A stretch of 56,751 bases of DNA, from NCBI GenBank assembly GCA_017983775.1, contig JAGOAT010000001.1:1-56751 (forward strand), written 5' to 3'. Positions 370 to 28,061 of this stretch are shown here, one piece after another. This DNA is from Candidatus Saccharimonadota bacterium (GTDB lineage: Bacteria > Patescibacteriota > Saccharimonadia > JAGOAT01). Within the stretch, counting starts at the first letter, position 1. Each line of letters opens with the position of its first letter. The notes under the pieces were generated by a model. It was not told the origin of the DNA. It saw nothing but the letters and a program-made list of their open reading frames with translations, and ran no database searches. A program made the translations under genes and the position numbers.

Positions 370-1104
370 CTATTTAAGTTCAAAATCTAAAATCAAAGCA
401 TTATGGTCAGAGATTATAGTCTGGTCCATAGTAAATTCTTTAACGTCAATGTTTTGACTAACGAAGATGTAATCGCACACTTCATTTTTATAGGTTAATA
501 GTGAACGTGTGGTTTTTAGTGAATACTCAACGGAAAGGTTTCGTAGAACTGAATCGAATTGCTTAATCGATTCACTCTCAGGTGCAAGATTAAAATCTCC
601 ACAAAGTATTACGGCTCCCTCAAGTTGCTTGATGTAATCAATAATCATTGAGGTTTGACGTATGGTTTCTTCGTCACCCAGCTTGTGAGCATCAATGTGG
701 TGCCCATGATGATTAAGAATATGTAGCTTTTTGCCGTTAACCTCTAATGCTACGTGCTGTAATGCCCGTATATTGTAGTCGTCAGCGTCAAAATCAAAGT
801 CTGCCTTATATGAGCCACGTGTAAATATGTTTTCACTCTGTTCGAAGGGCAGTTTAGAATAGATAACGTTTCCAAATGAGAGGTCATTCTTGCCAAATTT
901 TGTTGAATTAAGGGGTGAAAAGAACTGTTGATTAAGTCGAAGGCTTTCACCGATTTTCGAGTATGAGCTGATAATACCACCAGTTTTACCACCGTAATCC
1001 ACTGCTTCTTGCATACATGCAAAATCTATATCTTGTTGTTCGAGATGCTTTAATAGGACTCGTTCAAGTCGTCCTTGCCATACGTTGAGTGTCATTAGTT
1101 TCAT
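370..1104 (-). CDS. endonuclease/exonuclease/phosphatase (EEP) family protein
   Basis: 244-aa ORF. The N-terminus MKLMTLNVW...CMQE and the C-terminus ...SDHNALILDF are typical EEP-fold motifs. Confidence 0.75.
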   Translation of the reverse strand: MKLMTLNVWQGRLERVLLKHLEQQDIDFACMQEAVDYGGKTGGIISSYSKIGESLRLNQQFFSPLNSTKFGKNDLSFGNVIYSKLPFEQSENIFTRGSYKADFDFDADDYNIRALQHVALEVNGKKLHILNHHGHHIDAHKLGDEETIRQTSMIIDYIKQLEGAVILCGDFNLAPESESIKQFDSVLRNLSVEYSLKTTRSLLTYKNEVCDYIFVSQNIDVKEFTMDQTIISDHNALILDFELK

Positions 1105-3673: not shown

Positions 3674-4057
3674 CTAAATCCTGACAACATTTTCCCCACC
3701 CTGATTGGCCAATCGTTTGTCAAATGTCGCCAACTGATTGTTACCGGTAGTGGCCTCTGTCGCTACATAACAATCTACTATAGATAAAGCAGCATGATCA
3801 CGATATAAACTAATCACTTCAGGTAGAAAATCTCGGTTTGTAGCCAAATTTGGGAAATTAAAAAAATCACCGACAAGTCTCGCAATGTCTTGTCTAGGTA
3901 TTTGAAATATTTTTTCTAAGACATAGATAGCCTCGATTATCACTACCTCGGTCACATAGACTTGATTATTCAAGATTAGATTTTCTACCTTTTTGGCTTG
4001 TTCGGGCAAGTCATTAAGTAGGAACCTTAATACCAAATTGGTGTCCAGGCTAATCAT
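3674..4057 (-). CDS. vapC: PIN-domain toxin (VapC-like)
   Basis: MISLDTNLVLRFLL... is the N-terminal acidic PIN motif. An ATG at 4057 overlaps the stop of the upstream antitoxin ORF by 8 nt. The track ORF extends to 4165, but that extension overlaps the antitoxin. Confidence 0.75.
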   Translation of the reverse strand: MISLDTNLVLRFLLNDLPEQAKKVENLILNNQVYVTEVVIIEAIYVLEKIFQIPRQDIARLVGDFFNFPNLATNRDFLPEVISLYRDHAALSIVDCYVATEATTGNNQLATFDKRLANQGGENVVRI

Positions 4058-4319
4058 TGATATCATCAACCCAAGAATCACCCCTGGCTTTATTGAGAGC
4101 TTCATCCGATAAACCTTTAAGACAAGCTGGGATATTCTTCGTGATACGAGATCTTGTTTTTGCAAAAGACTTGATATCAGTCCCAGCGTTTAGAATGATA
4201 TTGTTATTCTCATCAAGAGCTAGGGTTAGTTTTTGACCAGATTTGAGGTTTAATGCTTTACGCAGAGGAGAGAGTATAGTAATCGTGCCTTTACTGGTCA
4301 AAGTAGTCTTATAATTCAT
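4050..4319 (-). CDS. vapB: AbrB/SpoVT-family antitoxin (VapB-like)
   Basis: 89-aa ORF. TLTSKGTITILSPLRKALNLKSGQKL is a swapped-hairpin AbrB-type motif. It lies directly upstream of the PIN gene and overlaps it. Confidence 0.7.
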   Translation of the reverse strand: MNYKTTLTSKGTITILSPLRKALNLKSGQKLTLALDENNNIILNAGTDIKSFAKTRSRITKNIPACLKGLSDEALNKARGDSWVDDIND

Positions 4320-6346: not shown

Positions 6347-6940
6347 CTATTTAACTTGTACAATAGCCCGATCGGATCTAGCAGAGTTAGGTTTCCAGAT
6401 CATATACTGATGACCTTCCTCGATTGGTACCTCAAAAACTACTTGACCACTTGCAGTACCTCCACTGACAAGGTCTCCATAACCTAAAGCATTGTCAGCA
6501 AGTAATGATTTATCATCTAATACTTGCCCCTGAGCGGTCTGGATACGAAAGTTAGCCTGACTATAAGACACAACCTTATCACTAGTATTTTCTAATACTA
6601 CATCAGCAACAACATAGGTCTTGCCATCACTAGTTGTAAAGAATTGATCGAGACTTGTAGTATAGTTAACCTTACTTACAGTCATCTTCACCCCATCAAC
6701 TGTCCCAGCCTCACCAACTATTATCTCTACATCTTTTTCTTGCTTATCTACCCTATCCGCAAATCGATACTCTTTCGTCTGACTAGAGCTTTCAGATGAG
6801 CTATTTGATTGACCACCATTACTATTGTTTGACTTACTTCCCCCTGAGCTACCTATTATTGCCAAAACTACTAGCACAACGATTACCGTTAGTACTTTAT
6901 GTCGAGCAAACCAGCTCTTTTTCTTATTTGATTCAGCCAT
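6347..6940 (-). CDS. membrane-anchored DUF4352-like protein
   Basis: N-terminal TM helix, a Ser/Gly/Asn-rich linker, then a beta-rich domain ...VVADVVLENTSDKVVSYSQANFRIQ.... An AGGAGG RBS precedes the ATG. Confidence 0.6.
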   Translation of the reverse strand: MAESNKKKSWFARHKVLTVIVVLVVLAIIGSSGGSKSNNSNGGQSNSSSESSSQTKEYRFADRVDKQEKDVEIIVGEAGTVDGVKMTVSKVNYTTSLDQFFTTSDGKTYVVADVVLENTSDKVVSYSQANFRIQTAQGQVLDDKSLLADNALGYGDLVSGGTASGQVVFEVPIEEGHQYMIWKPNSARSDRAIVQVK

Positions 6941-6985
6941 TTTATGACCTCCTATTAGTTAGTTTATTAATCGGAGGCGATAACC

Positions 6986-7106
6986 AAAAAGGACAGCCTC
7001 GCTATGTTGTCTAGACTAATAGAAGAGATTGAACCCTACTATTTGCGTGGCTGCCCATTTCTTAGTTCAATCCACGCAAGAGGCGTTTTCTTCTATTAAT
7101 CTAGAC
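6986..7106 (-). promoter_or_regulatory. structured 5' leader A (riboswitch-like; long P1, H-type pseudoknot, U-tract)
   Basis: P1 pairs 7009-7026 with 7089-7106 (17 of 18 bp). P2 pairs 7027-7034 with 7065-7072. P3 pairs 7043-7050 with 7072-7079 and is interleaved with P2. The loop GAAATGGGCAG (minus strand) is conserved. A T-run follows on the minus strand. It is a paralogue of the element at 25326-25443. Confidence 0.45.
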
Positions 7107-7284
7107 TCAATCATCTTACCATCTAGTTCAAATAATCTCAAAATCTTACAAATTTGAAGGTTATAAATCAGGTATCTTTATTGAAAAATTCAATACACCT
7201 ATTACCCTTGACATCGGGAGTATAATAAGGTTAAGAGATAAATAAAGATAGAATATTACTAACTAATATGATAGGAGGGATGCT

Positions 7285-7848
7285 ATGGCAAAGAATATTG
7301 CTGAGCAAGCTGGCTATGATCTGAGTGGGATCTTGATGGCCAGAGGAGTATTTACAATTATTTTTGGGGTTATTGCCCTAGTCTGGCCAGGTATGACCTT
7401 GGTCACTCTAGCAATAATCACTGCAATCTGGCTGTTTGTCAGCGGTATTACTGGCGCATTATCCAGTATATTCATGCGAGACAATCACCAATACTGGTTC
7501 CTGAGACTAATCCTCTCACTAATCCAGTTTGGAGTAGGGGCATATCTGGTGCAACGACCTGGAATATCCATCCTAACCTTTATGCTAGCGATTGGACTGA
7601 GTTTCATCGTCGAAGGTGTGATCGAACTAGCCATCTCCTTCACAGATTCAGGCATGGATGGTGGTAGTAGAATGTTAGGAGTACTACTTGGTCTACTAAC
7701 AATGGCTGGAGGAATCATGGTCTGGAGATATCCAGATACTGGTTCACTAGCTTTCATTTGGGTTCTCGGTCTAGTAGCTCTAGTCGGTGGTACTGCCACC
7801 CTCTGGAAAGCTATCGATATGCGTCGAGATCTCAAAAAAGACGAATAA
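7285..7848 (+). CDS. HdeD/DUF308 family membrane protein
   Basis: 187 aa with six hydrophobic helices. RGVFTIIFGVIALVWPG is a typical DUF308 repeat. Confidence 0.65.
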   Translation: MAKNIAEQAGYDLSGILMARGVFTIIFGVIALVWPGMTLVTLAIITAIWLFVSGITGALSSIFMRDNHQYWFLRLILSLIQFGVGAYLVQRPGISILTFMLAIGLSFIVEGVIELAISFTDSGMDGGSRMLGVLLGLLTMAGGIMVWRYPDTGSLAFIWVLGLVALVGGTATLWKAIDMRRDLKKDE

Positions 7849-11031: not shown

Positions 11032-11649
11032 ATGCCAACTCGAAAACCCAATTCAATTCTACCAAAATTCCTACTGATTTTGAGTGTTGTTCTGATATTG
11101 TCGGGCATTGCCTTGACCAAACAAGCTAATCAGATTATTTCTTCACCAGTGGCTCAACAAACCAACACAGCTAATCAACTGACCTCTACTGAATTATTTC
11201 AGATCGAATCAGACCTTACTCCCAACCCGCAACAAGCCTTAACTAAACTTAATCAATTCTCAGCAATAATCTATCTACCTAGTGGTACTCAAGAAACTGG
11301 ATATCAAGAAAATGCCCTGACTCGCAACATTGGCTCAATCAACAACTTCGGCCAGCTCTTCTCCAATCTTCTAAAAGGTCCAAACTATCTTGAGGCCAAT
11401 CAAGGTATTCTACCGGTATTTGAACTTTCAGGAAAGAGTCCAAATATCGACAACTGCCTGAAACACTATGATTACTACCAAAAAGAAACTGATCAAGAAA
11501 TCGTTATCAGGTTCTGTCGAGATATTAAAATCATCGACCAAGATCCAGAATATCAAGCTTTAGCCAAAGACCTGATTAAAAAAACTCTTGATCAAAATTA
11601 TAATAAAGCTTGGCAACTACTCGACAAAAATGGACAACCCCTGCTCTAG
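11032..11649 (+). CDS. hypothetical secreted/membrane-anchored protein
   Basis: 205-aa ORF with an N-terminal signal-anchor helix. No recognisable domain. Confidence 0.45.
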   Translation: MPTRKPNSILPKFLLILSVVLILSGIALTKQANQIISSPVAQQTNTANQLTSTELFQIESDLTPNPQQALTKLNQFSAIIYLPSGTQETGYQENALTRNIGSINNFGQLFSNLLKGPNYLEANQGILPVFELSGKSPNIDNCLKHYDYYQKETDQEIVIRFCRDIKIIDQDPEYQALAKDLIKKTLDQNYNKAWQLLDKNGQPLL

Positions 11650-23179: not shown

Positions 23180-24145
23180 TTATATCGAGATATCCCGAAC
23201 CTCTTTGCCAGCCTTAATATCATCAAAAATTCCGAAATACACCTGATACTTATCCTCTAGCTCAGCCAACTGAGCATTATGCTGATCGGCTAGATCATTG
23301 TAACGATCAACCTGAGCATTATAATTAGCAACTCTGCCATTATACTCACCAATCTGCCCTTCAGCCAGTAACTGTTCGAGCTCTACATTTTGACTTATAA
23401 GGTCTTGATACCTTGCCTCGAGTAAGATACTACTCTGATCCAAGTCACTTGCCAAGTCATTGATTTGATCTAGAATTGGACGAAATATCTGATCAAACTG
23501 TTTGGCAGCATCAACAATCCCTTCTCTATTGTCTAAAATCTCTAGATAAGACTTCAAAATTACTGGATAATCCTGATACTGAGTATCATCTAGTTCTGAT
23601 CCAGCAATAGCATATAGCTCTTTATGTTGATCCTCCTCTGGTAAGTCATTATAGCCAAGAAATCGTTGATCTCGATATTCTGCATTCAAATTGTCCCAGA
23701 AATCATCCAATTGATTGTCGAGAGCCAATTTTTCACTATCAGACTGGAGTTGGTATTCGAAGTGTAATACCTCATGCACCAAGACTGCTAGCTGATAATC
23801 TTTGATTTCTGGTTCCTCGATATCCAAAAGATAAATTCTATACTCAGAGCCATTGTCAGAAAAGAAGCAGCCAAATATCAACTCCGTCTTCCCTTCACTC
23901 CCCTCTGGGCACTTGTCTGTCAAAGTCTGATAATCCACTATCTCAGGATTTGATTGTAAGAATATCGACAATCCATGGTGGCTGAGACCTGCTTTTTCTC
24001 CCAATTCTACTATTGATGGATCTCCTTCGTAGGTATATATCATAAACTGGTCGTATAGCCATTGCCTTCTTGAGTAACCAAAAACAGCTCCCAAAATCAG
24101 AGCGATAAGCAATAGATACTTTAGGACTCTAAAAAAGTATTTCAC
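23180..24145 (-). CDS. membrane-anchored hypothetical protein with HExxH motif and C-terminal coiled coil
   Basis: N-terminal TM helix and VLVHEVLHFEY (HExxH). Acidic, coiled-coil C-terminal half. Confidence 0.4.
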   Translation of the reverse strand: MKYFFRVLKYLLLIALILGAVFGYSRRQWLYDQFMIYTYEGDPSIVELGEKAGLSHHGLSIFLQSNPEIVDYQTLTDKCPEGSEGKTELIFGCFFSDNGSEYRIYLLDIEEPEIKDYQLAVLVHEVLHFEYQLQSDSEKLALDNQLDDFWDNLNAEYRDQRFLGYNDLPEEDQHKELYAIAGSELDDTQYQDYPVILKSYLEILDNREGIVDAAKQFDQIFRPILDQINDLASDLDQSSILLEARYQDLISQNVELEQLLAEGQIGEYNGRVANYNAQVDRYNDLADQHNAQLAELEDKYQVYFGIFDDIKAGKEVRDISI

Positions 24146-24195: not shown

Positions 24196-24732
24196 CTACC
24201 CCAATCTTTCTGCCATCCAATAAAGCTCACTTAAGACCTGCTCTACCTCTTTTTGCTTACTATCATCAATTGGTTCACCAGTATTCTGATCAAAAAATCC
24301 ATAAGAATTACTAAAGTGAATATCATGAGACAATGCTACCATCCCCATCTGCCTGACAGCAGAAAGGATGCTTTCAATAGCCCTGACCCCACCAAAACCA
24401 CCGACAGATACTCCAGCAAAACCAACCGGTTTATGCAAATAATTAGCTAGCTCTGTATCAAGTAGCATTTTGAGACTCCCAGCAAAACTATGGTTATATT
24501 CAGGTAAAACCAGCAGGAAGGCATCTGCCCATTCAGTTAGCTTTGTGTATTCTGGATTTTTATTGTCTGGATCATTACCTTCATGTGGACTAGGATAATC
24601 TTCGGGACAAATTAGCTTGACCTCAAAACGCTGATTCTGATTGGCCAACTTTTCCAAGTATTTTGCAGCAAATATTGATCGACGCTGAGCCCTAATACTT
24701 CCCTCGATAATCAATAGATTTAGCTTTTTCAT
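24196..24732 (-). CDS. NAD(P)H-dependent FMN reductase family protein
   Basis: LLIIEGSIR..R.S......PEYNHS.....K..LD, a typical flavodoxin-like FMN reductase. Confidence 0.8.
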   Translation of the reverse strand: MKKLNLLIIEGSIRAQRRSIFAAKYLEKLANQNQRFEVKLICPEDYPSPHEGNDPDNKNPEYTKLTEWADAFLLVLPEYNHSFAGSLKMLLDTELANYLHKPVGFAGVSVGGFGGVRAIESILSAVRQMGMVALSHDIHFSNSYGFFDQNTGEPIDDSKQKEVEQVLSELYWMAERLG

Positions 24733-24974
24733 AGTCCAAGTGCCTTGTCGAGCTTTGGTTTATCAAAGCCTAAGATACCTATTACTGACCCATCATCTTG
24801 CTCAACCTTGATACAGGGTACCCCAAGACTGTTGCAGGTCTTGATTGCCTCCTGGGCTCTTTCTGGCTGATCGTCTAAGAGCACTTCCTCAAAAGCAATG
24901 CTTTTTGATCTAAGATAATCCTTTGCCAGATGGCAATATGGACACGTTTTGGTGGAATAAACCGTAACATTCAT
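24729..24974 (-). CDS. glutaredoxin/NrdH-like redoxin
   Basis: 81 aa with VYSTKTCPYCHLAKDYL (CPYC active site). Confidence 0.8.
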   Translation of the reverse strand: MNVTVYSTKTCPYCHLAKDYLRSKSIAFEEVLLDDQPERAQEAIKTCNSLGVPCIKVEQDDGSVIGILGFDKPKLDKALGL

Positions 24975-24975
24975 G

Positions 24976-25299
24976 CTACTCCTTATTATGAATTAATTTT
25001 TGATCCATTCTGATGATTTGCGAAATCTGTTGATATTCCTCAAAATCTTGACTAACCTGATAGCAAACTTTCTTTCCTTCTCTGATGTGTTTAATCAGCC
25101 CTGAATTTTCAAGGATCTTTAACTGCTGAGAAACTGCTGGAATACTAACATTCAATTGGCTAGCTAGCTCACTAACACAGATGCCTGGATAGATGGTTAA
25201 TAAGCTATAAATTTGATATCTAGATTGATCACCAAGTGCTGAAAATATCTCTCTTATATTAGTTACTCCTGAATTAGTCATATCACCATCATAATCCAA
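24976..25299 (-). CDS. ArsR/SmtB family transcriptional regulator
   Basis: ALGDQSRYQIYSLL....CVSELA..L.VS.PAVSQQLKILENSGLI is a winged-HTH signature. Confidence 0.8.
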   Translation of the reverse strand: MDYDGDMTNSGVTNIREIFSALGDQSRYQIYSLLTIYPGICVSELASQLNVSIPAVSQQLKILENSGLIKHIREGKKVCYQVSQDFEEYQQISQIIRMDQKLIHNKE

Positions 25300-25325
25300 A
25301 AATACCTTTAAGTAAATACTTAAAC

Positions 25326-25443
25326 AAAAAGGACAACCACTGGTTGTCTATTCCAGCAGAAGGTTTGTATTCTGCCTAAGTGGTTGCCCATTTCATATAC
25401 AAACCACTTGAGCTAGAAGCTCCATATACTGGAATAGACAACC
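25326..25443 (-). promoter_or_regulatory. structured 5' leader B (riboswitch-like; P1, pseudoknot, intrinsic attenuator)
   Basis: P1 pairs 25342-25356 with 25429-25443 (15/15 bp). P2 pairs 25362-25370 with 25397-25405. P3 pairs 25378-25383 with 25404-25409. On the minus strand the terminator GACAACC-agt-GGTTGTC plus T5 (25326-25348) competes with the P1 3' arm. A promoter-like TTGATT-17-TATATT lies at 25446-25474 (minus strand). Confidence 0.5.
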
Positions 25444-25502
25444 CTAATATATATCATCTGAGTACTAAAATCAAACGCTTTCAAATGTGTTAGAATGCTT
25501 AT

Positions 25503-28061
25503 ATGACAAAACCAACAAAAATTACCCAGCTCAGCCAATTCCTTCATATTGATAGCTATCAAATTGAACTCAATATAGACAGATTAGGACTTTGTTACCA
25601 AGGCAAAGTCAAAATTGATGCTACCTGCCAGATAGACCAGGAGTATTTACAGCTTCATGCTAAAGATCTAGAGATTAATGATGTAAATATATCTATAGAC
25701 TACCTAGAGTTTACTCCCGCAAACTACAATCTAATCCCCGCAGATGATCTGATTCAAATCCTAAATCCTACTAAGTTGGAATTCAAAAAAGATCAAAAAG
25801 TAATACTAGAGATCAATTTCTCTAGAAAAATATCAAATAAATTGCAAGGTCTATATCCCTGCAACTATCAAACCTTATCTGGTGAGACTAGTTGGCTACT
25901 TGCTACTCAGATGGAAAGCCACTATGCTAGAGAAGTTTTTGTCTGTCTAGACGAACCAAACGCCAAGTCAAAGTTTGACCTAACTGTAATCCATCACCCA
26001 GCGGACCAATGCCTAAGCAATACGCCGATAATTGAGACAGAGCTAATCTCTGAAGACAAACAAAGGACTAGATTTGCCCAGACTCCAACAATGTCAACTT
26101 ATTTGCTAGCACTAGTAATTGGAGACTTAAGGTACCTAGAAACAATCTCAGATAGTGGTGTAAAAATTCGTACATATGCCACACCTGATAAGATTAAGCA
26201 GACCAAATTTTCTCTAGAAATTGCTAAGAAAGTCCTTGATCTATATGAAAGATTTTTTGAAATACCCTACCCATTAACCAAACTAGATATGGTAGCCTTG
26301 CCAGAATTTGAATCAGGAGCAATGGAAAACTGGGGACTAATAACCTATCGTGAGGCCTGCCTGATCTATGACCCCGACTCGACTAATGTTTTTGTCGAGC
26401 AATTTATCGTCGAAGTCATCGCACATGAAATCGCACACCAATGGTTTGGTAATTTGGTAACAATGGATTGGTGGGAAGATCTTTGGCTCAATGAAGGATT
26501 TGCTAGCTGGATGGCGATCTATGCTGCTGACCAAATCTATCCAGAATGGAATTATTTCGAACAATTTGTAGGCCTCGAAAGACGCAATGCAATGGAACTC
26601 GATAGCCTAAGTGATTCCCATCCAATTGAGGTTGAGATTAATCATCCAGACCAAATTCGAACTGCCTTTGATCAAATTAGCTATGGCAAGGGAGCAAGTA
26701 TAATCCACATGCTTGCTCACTATTTAGGACTTGAGATTTTCCGCAAAGGCATTGTGCTCTATCTAAATCAATATAGTTACAACAATGCCACCACCAAGCA
26801 GCTATGGGACGCCCTGGAACAAGTATCTAGCCAGCCAATCACAGACCTGATGCCAAACTGGACAGAACAATCGGGGTTCCCAGTATTATCGATTGAGGTC
26901 AATAAAGATACTATGACCCTCAAGCAGACTCAATTTTCTTACCAAGAAGAGAATAATCATAAAATCTGGTCTATTCCTCTTAACTTTTCAGATCAATCAT
27001 ACAACCAGCTTCTGATTGGCCAACAAACTGAAATACAGCTTTCCAGCCCATCTGAATTGCCCCCATTGATCAATCCTAACCAAGTAGGCTTTTATTTGAT
27101 CAAGCCAGATAAAACTTATCAAGATAGCCTCAACTCTAGACTTCAGGGTAACCAACTAAGCAATCTTGATATTCAGGCGATAATCCTTGACCACTTAATG
27201 CTTAGCCTCAAAGGAGATAGAAGTATTATCAATCTACTCGATACCTTGGAAACTGTGGCTAATTCGTCTACAAGCTTCCTGGTGTGGTCAGCAATATCTG
27301 AAGTGATTAGTGAGCTCAGGATAAATTTCTACCCAGATAAATCCCAATTTGTGCCTCTATCAAACTGGATTCAAAAATTGATTAAGATGCCACTTGGCCA
27401 AATAGACTGGCGACCCACTCCTGAAGAACCGAAAAACCTTACCCAATTAAGAACACTGTTGCTGGGACTTGGTCTCATCTATAATTATCAGCCTACCACA
27501 GATTGGCTGACTCAATTACCAATACTAAGCCATCCGGACCTAGACCGGCTTTCATTGAAAGCCAAACTGAAAGCTCAACCAGCCAAATTCCAAGCAGAGT
27601 TGCTAGATCTATACTCCAAAGAGTTAAATCAACAAAAGATCTCTGACTACATCTCAGCTTTATCTAGTCAACCAGAACTTAGTCAGTTTGACCAACTCTG
27701 GCAATTTACGATGTCCGATAATGTTCGCAAACAAGATATCCGCTCCTGGTTAACTAATCTCGGTAGCAACCTTAGCTTGCAATCTGTTTACCTTGATAAA
27801 TTATTCTCTGACTATCAGCAAGTCATCAACAAGCTCGACGGTAAAGAACCAATCGCGAGAATCTTTAATCAGATAGGTAGGTATTTTGCTAATTCTGATT
27901 CTTATAAGCTATTCAAAGATTTTGCTGATCAAGACAATCCTGCTATCCAAAGAAGTTATGACCAGCTAATTGAAACTATTGAACTAAGGTTGGCATTCCA
28001 AGACCGTGAACAAACCAAGGTGTTGAATTATTTCAATCAAATTGAGACTAATAATGGATAG
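25503..28061 (+). CDS. pepN: M1-family aminopeptidase N
   Basis: The GAMENWG exopeptidase motif and the zinc motif HEIAHQWFGNLVT...WLNEGFA. Confidence 0.92.
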   Translation: MTKPTKITQLSQFLHIDSYQIELNIDRLGLCYQGKVKIDATCQIDQEYLQLHAKDLEINDVNISIDYLEFTPANYNLIPADDLIQILNPTKLEFKKDQKVILEINFSRKISNKLQGLYPCNYQTLSGETSWLLATQMESHYAREVFVCLDEPNAKSKFDLTVIHHPADQCLSNTPIIETELISEDKQRTRFAQTPTMSTYLLALVIGDLRYLETISDSGVKIRTYATPDKIKQTKFSLEIAKKVLDLYERFFEIPYPLTKLDMVALPEFESGAMENWGLITYREACLIYDPDSTNVFVEQFIVEVIAHEIAHQWFGNLVTMDWWEDLWLNEGFASWMAIYAADQIYPEWNYFEQFVGLERRNAMELDSLSDSHPIEVEINHPDQIRTAFDQISYGKGASIIHMLAHYLGLEIFRKGIVLYLNQYSYNNATTKQLWDALEQVSSQPITDLMPNWTEQSGFPVLSIEVNKDTMTLKQTQFSYQEENNHKIWSIPLNFSDQSYNQLLIGQQTEIQLSSPSELPPLINPNQVGFYLIKPDKTYQDSLNSRLQGNQLSNLDIQAIILDHLMLSLKGDRSIINLLDTLETVANSSTSFLVWSAISEVISELRINFYPDKSQFVPLSNWIQKLIKMPLGQIDWRPTPEEPKNLTQLRTLLLGLGLIYNYQPTTDWLTQLPILSHPDLDRLSLKAKLKAQPAKFQAELLDLYSKELNQQKISDYISALSSQPELSQFDQLWQFTMSDNVRKQDIRSWLTNLGSNLSLQSVYLDKLFSDYQQVINKLDGKEPIARIFNQIGRYFANSDSYKLFKDFADQDNPAIQRSYDQLIETIELRLAFQDREQTKVLNYFNQIETNNG

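Follow-up and report, generated by a model that had tools for sequence, protein, structure and literature searches.

A family of structured RNAs in Saccharibacteria with a conserved core complementary to its own intrinsic terminator

In ON-type riboswitch platforms, for example adenine pbuE and ZTP, an aptamer helix or pseudoknot and the terminator compete for one strand in the 5' leader. The PyrR, T-box and Bacillus subtilis infC/L20 leaders are built on chains of alternative pairings, in which a long-range pairing decides on the formation of the terminator. The HMP-PP (thiS motif) riboswitch is a small hairpin for which the ligand is defined and the downstream genes are coherent; the terminator stem itself belongs to the conserved motif. 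Finally, the P1/P7 C4 antisense RNA (RF01695) is located at the 5' end of an operon with prophage or moron genes, its loops are complementary to later sites of the same transcript, and it pairs with the ribosome-binding region of the gene that follows. As far as our literature searches show, almost no RNA regulators are known from Saccharibacteria (candidate phyla radiation (CPR)/Patescibacteria). Here, we report on a 56,751-nt stretch of DNA from a Candidatus Saccharimonadota bacterium (contig JAGOAT010000001.1), in the following called the window, in which an earlier note made from the sequence alone had proposed two riboswitch-like leaders, copy A and copy B. Copy B is situated on the minus strand of 25326-25474, upstream of genes for an ArsR-family regulator, a glutaredoxin and a FMN reductase. 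All coordinates are window positions, and the features of both copies are all on the minus strand.

Copy B is a member of an uncatalogued family of structured RNAs, 95-130 nt long, that occur in Saccharibacteria and on two small siphovirus contigs, and this family lies outside all of the systems mentioned above. It has in common with the ON-type riboswitches that a structured element and the terminator compete for one strand in the 5' leader, but here the helix that competes is directed to the loop and the 3' strand of the terminator, the outer helix P1 is very long, a pocket is not apparent, and Rfam contains no match. The chain of alternative pairings resembles the PyrR, T-box and L20 leaders, whereas none of their sequence features is present and the antiterminator captures the 3' strand of the terminator instead of the 5' strand. 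As in the thiS motif, the terminator stem belongs to the conserved motif, which however spans 95-130 nt with the helices P1, P3 and a long-range (LR) helix and is followed by mixed genes. The C4 RNA is the closest parallel regarding self-complementarity, its position at the operon 5' end and the prophage or moron context, but the family described here pairs with its own terminator, and no sequence or structure match to C4 was found.

The invariant core of the family, GAAAUGGGCARCC, together with the next 3-6 nt has as its reverse complement the loop and the 3' strand of the terminator plus the first U residues behind them. Such a core, antisense to the loop, the 3' strand and the U tail of its own terminator, is an unusual design for a termination switch or for the sealing of a small RNA. 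Based on these complementarities the family most likely represents conditional-termination leaders in which two partners alternate for the 3' strand of the terminator, a reading to which we give an about even chance. The promoter-like site, the 15-bp complement, the interleaved helices P2 and P3, the core and the 7-bp hairpin with its five U residues that had been listed before were all located again at their coordinates, and with the additional parts copy B is composed as follows:

25446-25474 (-), promoter-like site with 9 of 12 positions matching: -35 TTGATT at 25469-25474, 17-nt spacer, -10 TATATT at 25446-25451
25448-25456 (-), alternative extended -10, TGATATATA
25429-25443 with 25342-25356 (-), perfect 15-bp complement on the DNA, GGTTGTCTATTCCAG with CTGGAATAGACAACC
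25440-25443 (-), GGUU, which lengthens the complement on the DNA and may be untranscribed
25427-25439 (-), P1 5' strand GUCUAUUCCAGUA, with GUCUA invariant in the family; probable RNA 5' end
25410-25422 (-), P1a, small hairpin GAGCU-UCU-AGCUC
25404-25409 (-), P2 5' strand AAGUGG, pairing with CCACUU at 25378-25383
25397-25405 (-), P3 5' strand (GG)UUUGUAU, pairing with AUACAAA(CC) at 25362-25370
25382-25394 (-), core GAAAUGGGCAACC
25379-25394 (-), core and flank GAAAUGGGCAACCACU, the LR 5' strand, complement of 25326-25341; its last bases double as P2 3' strand
25346-25358 (-), P1 3' strand UGCUGGAAUAGAC, with UAGAC invariant
25332-25348 (-), intrinsic terminator hairpin GACAACC-AGU-GGUUGUC, then U5 at 25326-25330
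25326-25341 (-), LR 3' strand AGUGGUUGUCCUUUUU, consisting of terminator loop, terminator 3' half and U tract

Each of the 14 sequences tested has an LR helix of 8-14 contiguous bp anchored on GGGCA/UGUCC plus A-U pairs that extend into the U tract; the full helix is 12-17 bp long. In copy B, 25379-25394 pairs with 25326-25341 by 11 contiguous bp (GGGCAACCACU/AGUGGUUGUCC) and, beyond one U.U mismatch, by GAAA/UUUU with A-U and G-U pairs. The loop-pairing part of the helix covaries by lineage (ACU/AGU, CGC/GCG, CAC/GUG, UCACGC/GCGUGG, GUUG/CAAC, AUUGU/GCAAU and UAUUUC/GAGAUA), and the usual U.U is replaced by U-A in L158 and by C-G in L174. The covariation of LR, P1 and the terminator was evaluated in gap-free windows that were cut around invariant anchors, with no fitting of single sequences. 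For LR, 85% of the cells were paired and 29 had changed on both sides, which was reached by none of 500 shuffles, while slid controls were paired to 39-57%. When the 15 long members were aligned in the ordinary way with MAFFT, RNAalifold gave LR as the sole consensus structure; it comprised 16 pairs, and 6 of these covaried. The sequence GGUUGUCC thus has two alternative partners, the core (GGGCAACC) or the terminator 5' half GACAACC, and the pairing of the terminator 3' strand (GGYUGUCC) with the local GACAACC, which forms the terminator, and with the distal core, which forms LR, is mutually exclusive. The segment GACAACC is in turn common to the terminator and the base of P1. Hence, as in attenuators, mutually exclusive helices compete for a strand of the terminator (LR versus terminator for the 3' strand, and P1 base versus terminator for GAC(AACC)), and each of them has been kept in evolution.

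The other helices of the family were analyzed correspondingly. P1 joins the 5' end to the segment ending in UAGAC by 13-18 bp, or by about 20 bp or more in the phage variants, and its sequences are unrelated between lineages; 87.5% of its cells were paired and 38 had changed on both sides, which 0 of 500 shuffles matched, with slid controls being paired to 33-40%. The family terminator has the form GACAACC-loop-GGUUGUC(C) with a stem of 7-9 bp, which is mismatched in the copy A sub-lineage, and is followed by U5-8. In copy B it is a G+C-rich hairpin directly before the U tract, with a 7-bp stem containing 4 G-C pairs and a 3-nt loop (CUUUUUGUUU); it was also reported by the terminator scan, which found 6 terminator-like sites in the region where 1.2 are expected, and its 5' half has GAC (up to GACAACC) in common with P1. 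The conserved structured RNA with a genuine intrinsic terminator overlapping the P1 3' end, as it had been proposed before, is therefore supported. Regarding the inner pseudoknot, which in copy B is of the H type with P2 and P3 interleaved, P3 holds for the family, since 8-12 bp of unrelated sequence lie directly 5' of the core in 12 of 12 long members tested, whereas P2 is backed in the lineages of copy A and copy B only (GCGUGG/CCACGC, CGUGUG/CACACG, GCGUGA/UCACGC and AAGUGG/CCACUU). Thus, the covariation-backed structure generally expected for riboswitches in 5' leaders is present with P1, P3 and, in the A and B lineages, P2. The 151-nt region of copy B has a folding energy of -50 kcal/mol (z = -4.2), and none of 200 shuffles was as stable. 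Compared with the orthologous arsR locus L032, the element is far better kept than its flanks, which indicates that it is under selection; the position of P1a is occupied there by GGGC-UUU-GCCC and has hence undergone a compensated change.

The invariant columns GUCUA, AA.GGGCA.C, UAGACA and G.UGUCC.UUU are all found within the pairings of P1 base, terminator or LR. Outside of this pairing network there are a few nearly invariant single positions, and otherwise only the A of the linker UAG stands out. The four-way network could account for the invariance of these segments, while P1 and P3 drift freely. Because nearly all conserved bases are part of it, no independent ligand pocket is visible. 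This observation is of importance for the interpretation as a classical small-molecule ON riboswitch, according to which a ligand binds to the core of P2, P3 and GAAAUGGGCAA and steadies P1, so that GACAACC is withheld from the terminator. Such a mechanism would be consistent with the covarying conserved architecture in 5' leaders, with the GAC(AACC) common to P1 and terminator, with the covariation of P2 in the A and B lineages (e.g. GCGUGG/CCACGC versus GCGUGA/UCACGC), and with compensated changes in a hairpin of the copy A lineage, ACGC(N)/(N')GCGU, that rivals P2 for one strand. However, the conserved bases that look unpaired are explained by their complementarity to the terminator strand: the GAAAUGGGCAA loop mentioned in the earlier note is indeed present, but it is not a free pocket, as in all members the loop and its 3' flank can pair with the terminator loop, 3' strand and U tract and covary with them. 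Furthermore, the inner core is remote from the terminal 3 bp of the long P1 that compete with the terminator, which weakens the idea that a ligand-stabilised P1 acts as ON switch. The short phage variants retain the complementarity of core and terminator without having P2 or P3, all members use the same terminator in place of alternative expression platforms, and the downstream genes have no common metabolic theme that would correspond to one ligand. Collectively, a classical riboswitch appears quite improbable to us, and of the former riboswitch proposal the conserved cis-acting leader is the part that stays reasonable.

The start of the RNA can be estimated from the promoter register. A -10-like hexamer is located exactly 6 nt ahead of GUCUA in 16 of the 17 tabulated members and 7 nt ahead of it in L054, and most of the 17 show an upstream TG as in extended -10 elements. 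This fixed register points to an RNA start at or near the G of GUCUA. Promoter-like sites are found in the region at chance level (6 found versus 6.1 expected), hence the site of copy B by itself proves little. As judged by the family register, the copy B RNA probably starts at, or not more than about 3 nt away from, G25439. The best extended -10 of copy B (TGATATATA) is offset by 2 nt from this register, so that the start could be 1-3 nt farther upstream and would then include only part of GGUU. The GGUU at 25440-25443 may be wholly or partly outside the transcript, in which case P1 of the RNA would have 13 bp and overlap with the terminator only by GAC. The exclusivity of P1 and terminator that had been suggested is hence real with regard to the common strand, but the overlap is possibly limited to GAC, the terminal 3 bp, and reaches up to 7 bp in copy B. 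A function of the opposite strand was also considered and dropped, because the hairpin in the reverse complement of the element is not followed by a U tract.

With the 5' end set at GUCUA, 12 of 17 members favour the full-terminator conformer, which lies 1-7 kcal/mol below the full P1 whose 3' strand is left free; the copy A sub-lineage (copy A, L156, L158, L174 and L176) forms the exception. For the LR duplex the values range from -15 to -26 kcal/mol, and of all states compared P1 plus LR is by far the lowest in summed energy if the pseudoknot penalty is ignored. We propose the following mechanism of conditional termination. When the core is sequestered in the P3 loop or in the P2 pseudoknot, the 3' strand would displace the last few pairs of P1 and pair with GACAACC, which would cause termination and the release of a short RNA of approximately 115 nt. 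When the core is free, the bases of the terminator loop, which emerge first, would nucleate on the 3' flank of the core like on a toehold and the 3' strand would then zip onto the core, so that the hairpin is not formed and the polymerase reads through. Since the loop emerges first, its complementarity fits the needs of an antiterminator that is aimed at the 3' strand. The availability of the core would be set by P3, by P2 and, in the copy A lineage, by the competing ACGC(N)/(N')GCGU hairpin, and the choice could be biased by a small molecule, ion or protein as effector, or by the kinetics of the RNA polymerase. After its release, the short RNA would have both ends sealed by P1 and LR, which according to a geometric estimate could coexist in full length in the long members.

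Several points weigh against this mechanism as a general one. The same geometric estimate suggests that the connecting loops of the short phage variants are too short to permit full P1 and LR together. P2 had to be rejected as a family-wide helix, because it is at chance level in L048, the L050 group and L057. The LR helix runs into the U tract, where pairing cannot sway the decision on termination, which suggests an added role in the finished RNA, for example in sealing its 3' end. The polarity of the switch would differ among members, with LR meaning OFF in the copy A sub-lineage, where it would free an anti-Shine-Dalgarno (anti-SD) sequence, and ON in the terminator-type members. Finally, the operon downstream of copy B seems to possess its own promoter, as judged from the following features:

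24196-25281 (-), genes for the ArsR-family regulator, the glutaredoxin and the NADPH-dependent FMN reductase, downstream of copy B
23180-24145 (-), gene for a 321-aa protein with no Pfam match, after the FMN reductase gene
25308-25323 (-), inverted repeat TTAAGTA-TT-TACTTAA, likely the ArsR operator; begins 2 nt after the U tract
25279-25316 (-), arsR promoter-like site: TTTACT at 25311-25316, 17-nt spacer, TATGAT at 25288-25293; ATG at 25279-25281

The inverted repeat overlaps the -35 element TTTACT, and the conserved ATG follows 7 nt past the -10 element. The counterpart in L032 reads TTTACT-17-TATAAT-6-ATG with no Shine-Dalgarno (SD) sequence, and a similar sequence, TTAAGCGATTACTTAA, exists in L141 upstream of an arsR homologue. 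Hence, past the copy B terminator arsR probably has a promoter of its own, which is autoregulated and gives a leaderless transcript. The TTG start for arsR at 25299 in the list of open reading frames (ORFs) is probably too far upstream. According to the earlier note, an operon start downstream of the element would have spoken against its proposal; the -35 and -10 elements, the operator and the ATG are in fact seen past the terminator, but the element itself is still conserved. In view of the apparent promoter and operator of arsR, copy B may mainly give rise to a terminated small RNA or act as a conditional second promoter.

This touches on another interpretation, namely that a stable small RNA, either stand-alone or derived from a leader, is the functional product. 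Termination would then be the normal outcome, P1 would seal the 5' end and LR the U tail, and the RNA would act in trans or on sister transcripts, while the downstream genes would be expressed by leakage or from promoters of their own. A promoter and a strong terminator flanking about 115 nt are in line with this view, as are the entry of LR into the U tract, where the first position is compensated in L158 and L174, the low summed energy of P1 plus LR (again with the pseudoknot penalty left aside), the conservation of the element well above its flanks, and the apparent promoter, operator and leaderless ATG that arsR itself has behind copy B. However, most members have an SD sequence and an ATG within 30-50 nt and no recognisable promoter between terminator and SD, which makes read-through necessary, and the locus-specific covariation of core flank and terminator loop favours self-pairing over a shared target in trans. 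We regard a stable, end-sealed small RNA as unlikely for the family, though it is a serious rival especially in the case of copy B. The spacing is well documented: in L048, L050, L054, L055, L057 and the DUF4352 lineage, SD and ATG are positioned approximately 30-50 nt past the terminator, leaving no room for a promoter. The downstream gene in most members should therefore depend on read-through, which makes the role of a cis-regulatory leader reasonable.

The genes following the element differ widely and include DUF4352, arsR-grx-FMN_red, bPH_2, TM2 and several genes for small membrane-anchored or superinfection-exclusion (Sie)-like proteins. Several of the encoded proteins match moron or superinfection-exclusion families in PHROG, mostly weakly, and in L089 and L090 the downstream gene is a moron on the opposite strand adjoining the tape-measure gene. 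A metal or redox-related signal, which had been supposed because of the arsR, glutaredoxin and FMN reductase genes, is not supported by this collection: unrelated genes follow the other members, and the element is absent upstream of the more distant arsR homologues (L131-L141). The family thus corrects an attractive but unsupported inference for this arsR locus. The distant arsR homologues in L131-L140 and L141 (43% and 52% identity, respectively) stand first in operons with genes for 6-phosphogluconolactonase, 6PGD, G6PD and glutaredoxin, or for glutaredoxin and thioredoxin, which suggests that a thiol/NADPH redox regulon of these bacteria is under the control of this family of ArsR regulators.

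The moron positions in phages, the neighbourhood of integrases and recombinases and the matches to Sie-like and moron PHROGs could also mean that the element is a constitutive cassette of promoter and terminator that insulates mobile or moron genes and keeps them at a low, fixed and unregulated expression. A plain attenuator, though, does not need a P1 of 13-20 bp, a P3 and a self-complement of 12-17 bp, all of which are kept by compensatory changes; we consider such a cassette to be the least likely rival and its probability to be very low. It is a more far-reaching, tentative and on the whole doubtful idea that the family forms a new self-contained class of switches specific to Saccharibacteria and their phages, which would gate superinfection-exclusion-like surface proteins by a toehold antiterminator, would yield an end-sealed functional small RNA, and would have its balance set by a ligand, a protein or the contact between host and phage. 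For gene regulation in Saccharibacteria, the family provides a covariation-backed pairing network, a working covariance model and mutational predictions, and it offers an entry point to the way in which these episymbionts and their phages control their surface and phage-exclusion-like genes.

Genes for recombination functions adjoin several members, among them L048 (1622-3247, oriented), L050 (4833-6313, oriented), L158, L159, L174 and L176. They encode a serine recombinase, an excisionase-like protein together with a tyrosine integrase, or an MgsA_C protein and a phage-integrase pair after DUF4352; a putative reversed tRNA was seen by eye after the tyrosine integrase. These neighbours hint at cargo of mobile elements.

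Copy A has the same anatomy as copy B, as had been noticed before. Its main features are:

6986-7141 (-), copy A including its promoter TTGAGA-17-TAAGAT; the element itself covers 6986-7106
7089-7106 with 7009-7026 (-), P1
7049-7061 (-), core
6986-7002 (-), LR 3' strand
6347-6940 (-), DUF4352 gene downstream of copy A

In the sub-lineage of copy A, comprising also L156, L158, L174 and L176, the local terminator hairpin contains an A.C mismatch, while the LR helix is still perfect. At a distance of 8-10 nt past the U tract these members carry the anti-SD sequence GCCUCC (window 6947-6978 (-); L156, L158, L174 and L176), which can pair alternatively with the SD sequence (GGAGGU) or with GAGGC(UG) of the terminator loop and 3' strand. 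In 5 of 5 members of the sub-lineage, GCCUCC pairs with the SD sequence when the 3' strand is blocked. By this chain of pairings the switch may also act at the level of translation. The RNA element is missing from the DUF4352 homologues that are more distant (L160-L172); in L160, L161 and L163-L172, which stem from more distant Saccharibacteria, a divergent XRE-family (HTH_3) gene precedes DUF4352, with a gap of about 50-135 nt where the RNA would be.

The family amounts to at least 17 distinct sequences, copies A and B included, which were collected by pattern scans and by looking up gene neighbours; scans of the collections give lower bounds on its distribution. L032 was found by a pattern scan; its genome is titled Candidatus Nomurabacteria, whereas its ArsR protein is named Candidatus Saccharibacteria by NCBI. 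It is the one real hit among the 43 matches listed for the pattern GTGG..GAAATGGGCARCCAC in the genome collection, the other 42 being coincidences in coding sequences, for example in an ABC-transporter motif and on the opposite strand of a conserved gene. Of the 14 matches listed for the metagenome pattern, 6 are real and correspond to the contigs L048, L050, L051, L054, L055 and L057. Orthologues of the DUF4352 protein (57-86% identity) were preceded by the element in all 7 proteins tried (L156/L157, L158, L159, L173, L174/L175 and L176/L177). Patterns based on the core gave first no match and then 22 chance matches among viral sequences, whereas both phage variants, on the IMG/VR siphovirus contigs L089 and L090, were among the 51 matches listed for a pattern based on the tail. 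A covariance model trained on the 15 long members scored copy A with 114 bits and copy B with 84 bits, and it detected the two phage variants, which were absent from the training set, with 47 and 36 bits; the rest of the window contained nothing above 17 bits. Scans with a descriptor and with this model revealed no further copies in the window or in about 480 kb of related loci.

With Rfam 15, no match was obtained for the whole window at the gathering thresholds, and relaxed scans of 24900-25700 and five homologous loci yielded chance matches and one unrelated tRNA only. BLAST searches against phage and plasmid collections gave no match, and our literature searches found no earlier description of this RNA. 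A ribozyme (pistol or twister) or a T-box-like tRNA sensor was dropped as a candidate, since no such Rfam family appeared at even relaxed thresholds. An AUG frame of 10 codons in copy B also brought a leader-peptide attenuator into consideration, but no SD sequence is seen before this frame.

The short variants without P2 and P3 are located at 569-661 (+) in L089 and at 7529-7624 (+) in L090, in both cases on the opposite strand, flanked by the tape-measure gene and the tail genes upstream, and ahead of a gene for a small membrane protein. Relatives of this phage neighbour gene led to 7 more loci, none of which had the element when scanned with the tail and core patterns. The capsid protein of L090 is only about 30% identical to those of Bifidobacterium, Cutibacterium and Gordonia phages. 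Another IMG/VR contig, L103, has a promoter-like TATTATACAT that is directly followed by TAGACAACC-ACATTTT-GGTTGTCCTTTT, with neither P1 nor core; as judged from these letters, it is an isolated copy of the family terminator hairpin.

Two further sites of the window were recorded. The sequence GGGGTTGTCCATTTTT at 11626-11646 (-) resembles the 3' strand of the family terminator without core or P1 (12.7 bits, E = 0.49) and is probably a chance match or an ordinary terminator. The ORFs at 3674-4319 (-) overlap; their products are a PIN-domain protein and, just under the Pfam cut-off, a MazE/AbrB-like protein, and this pair is probably a type II toxin-antitoxin system.

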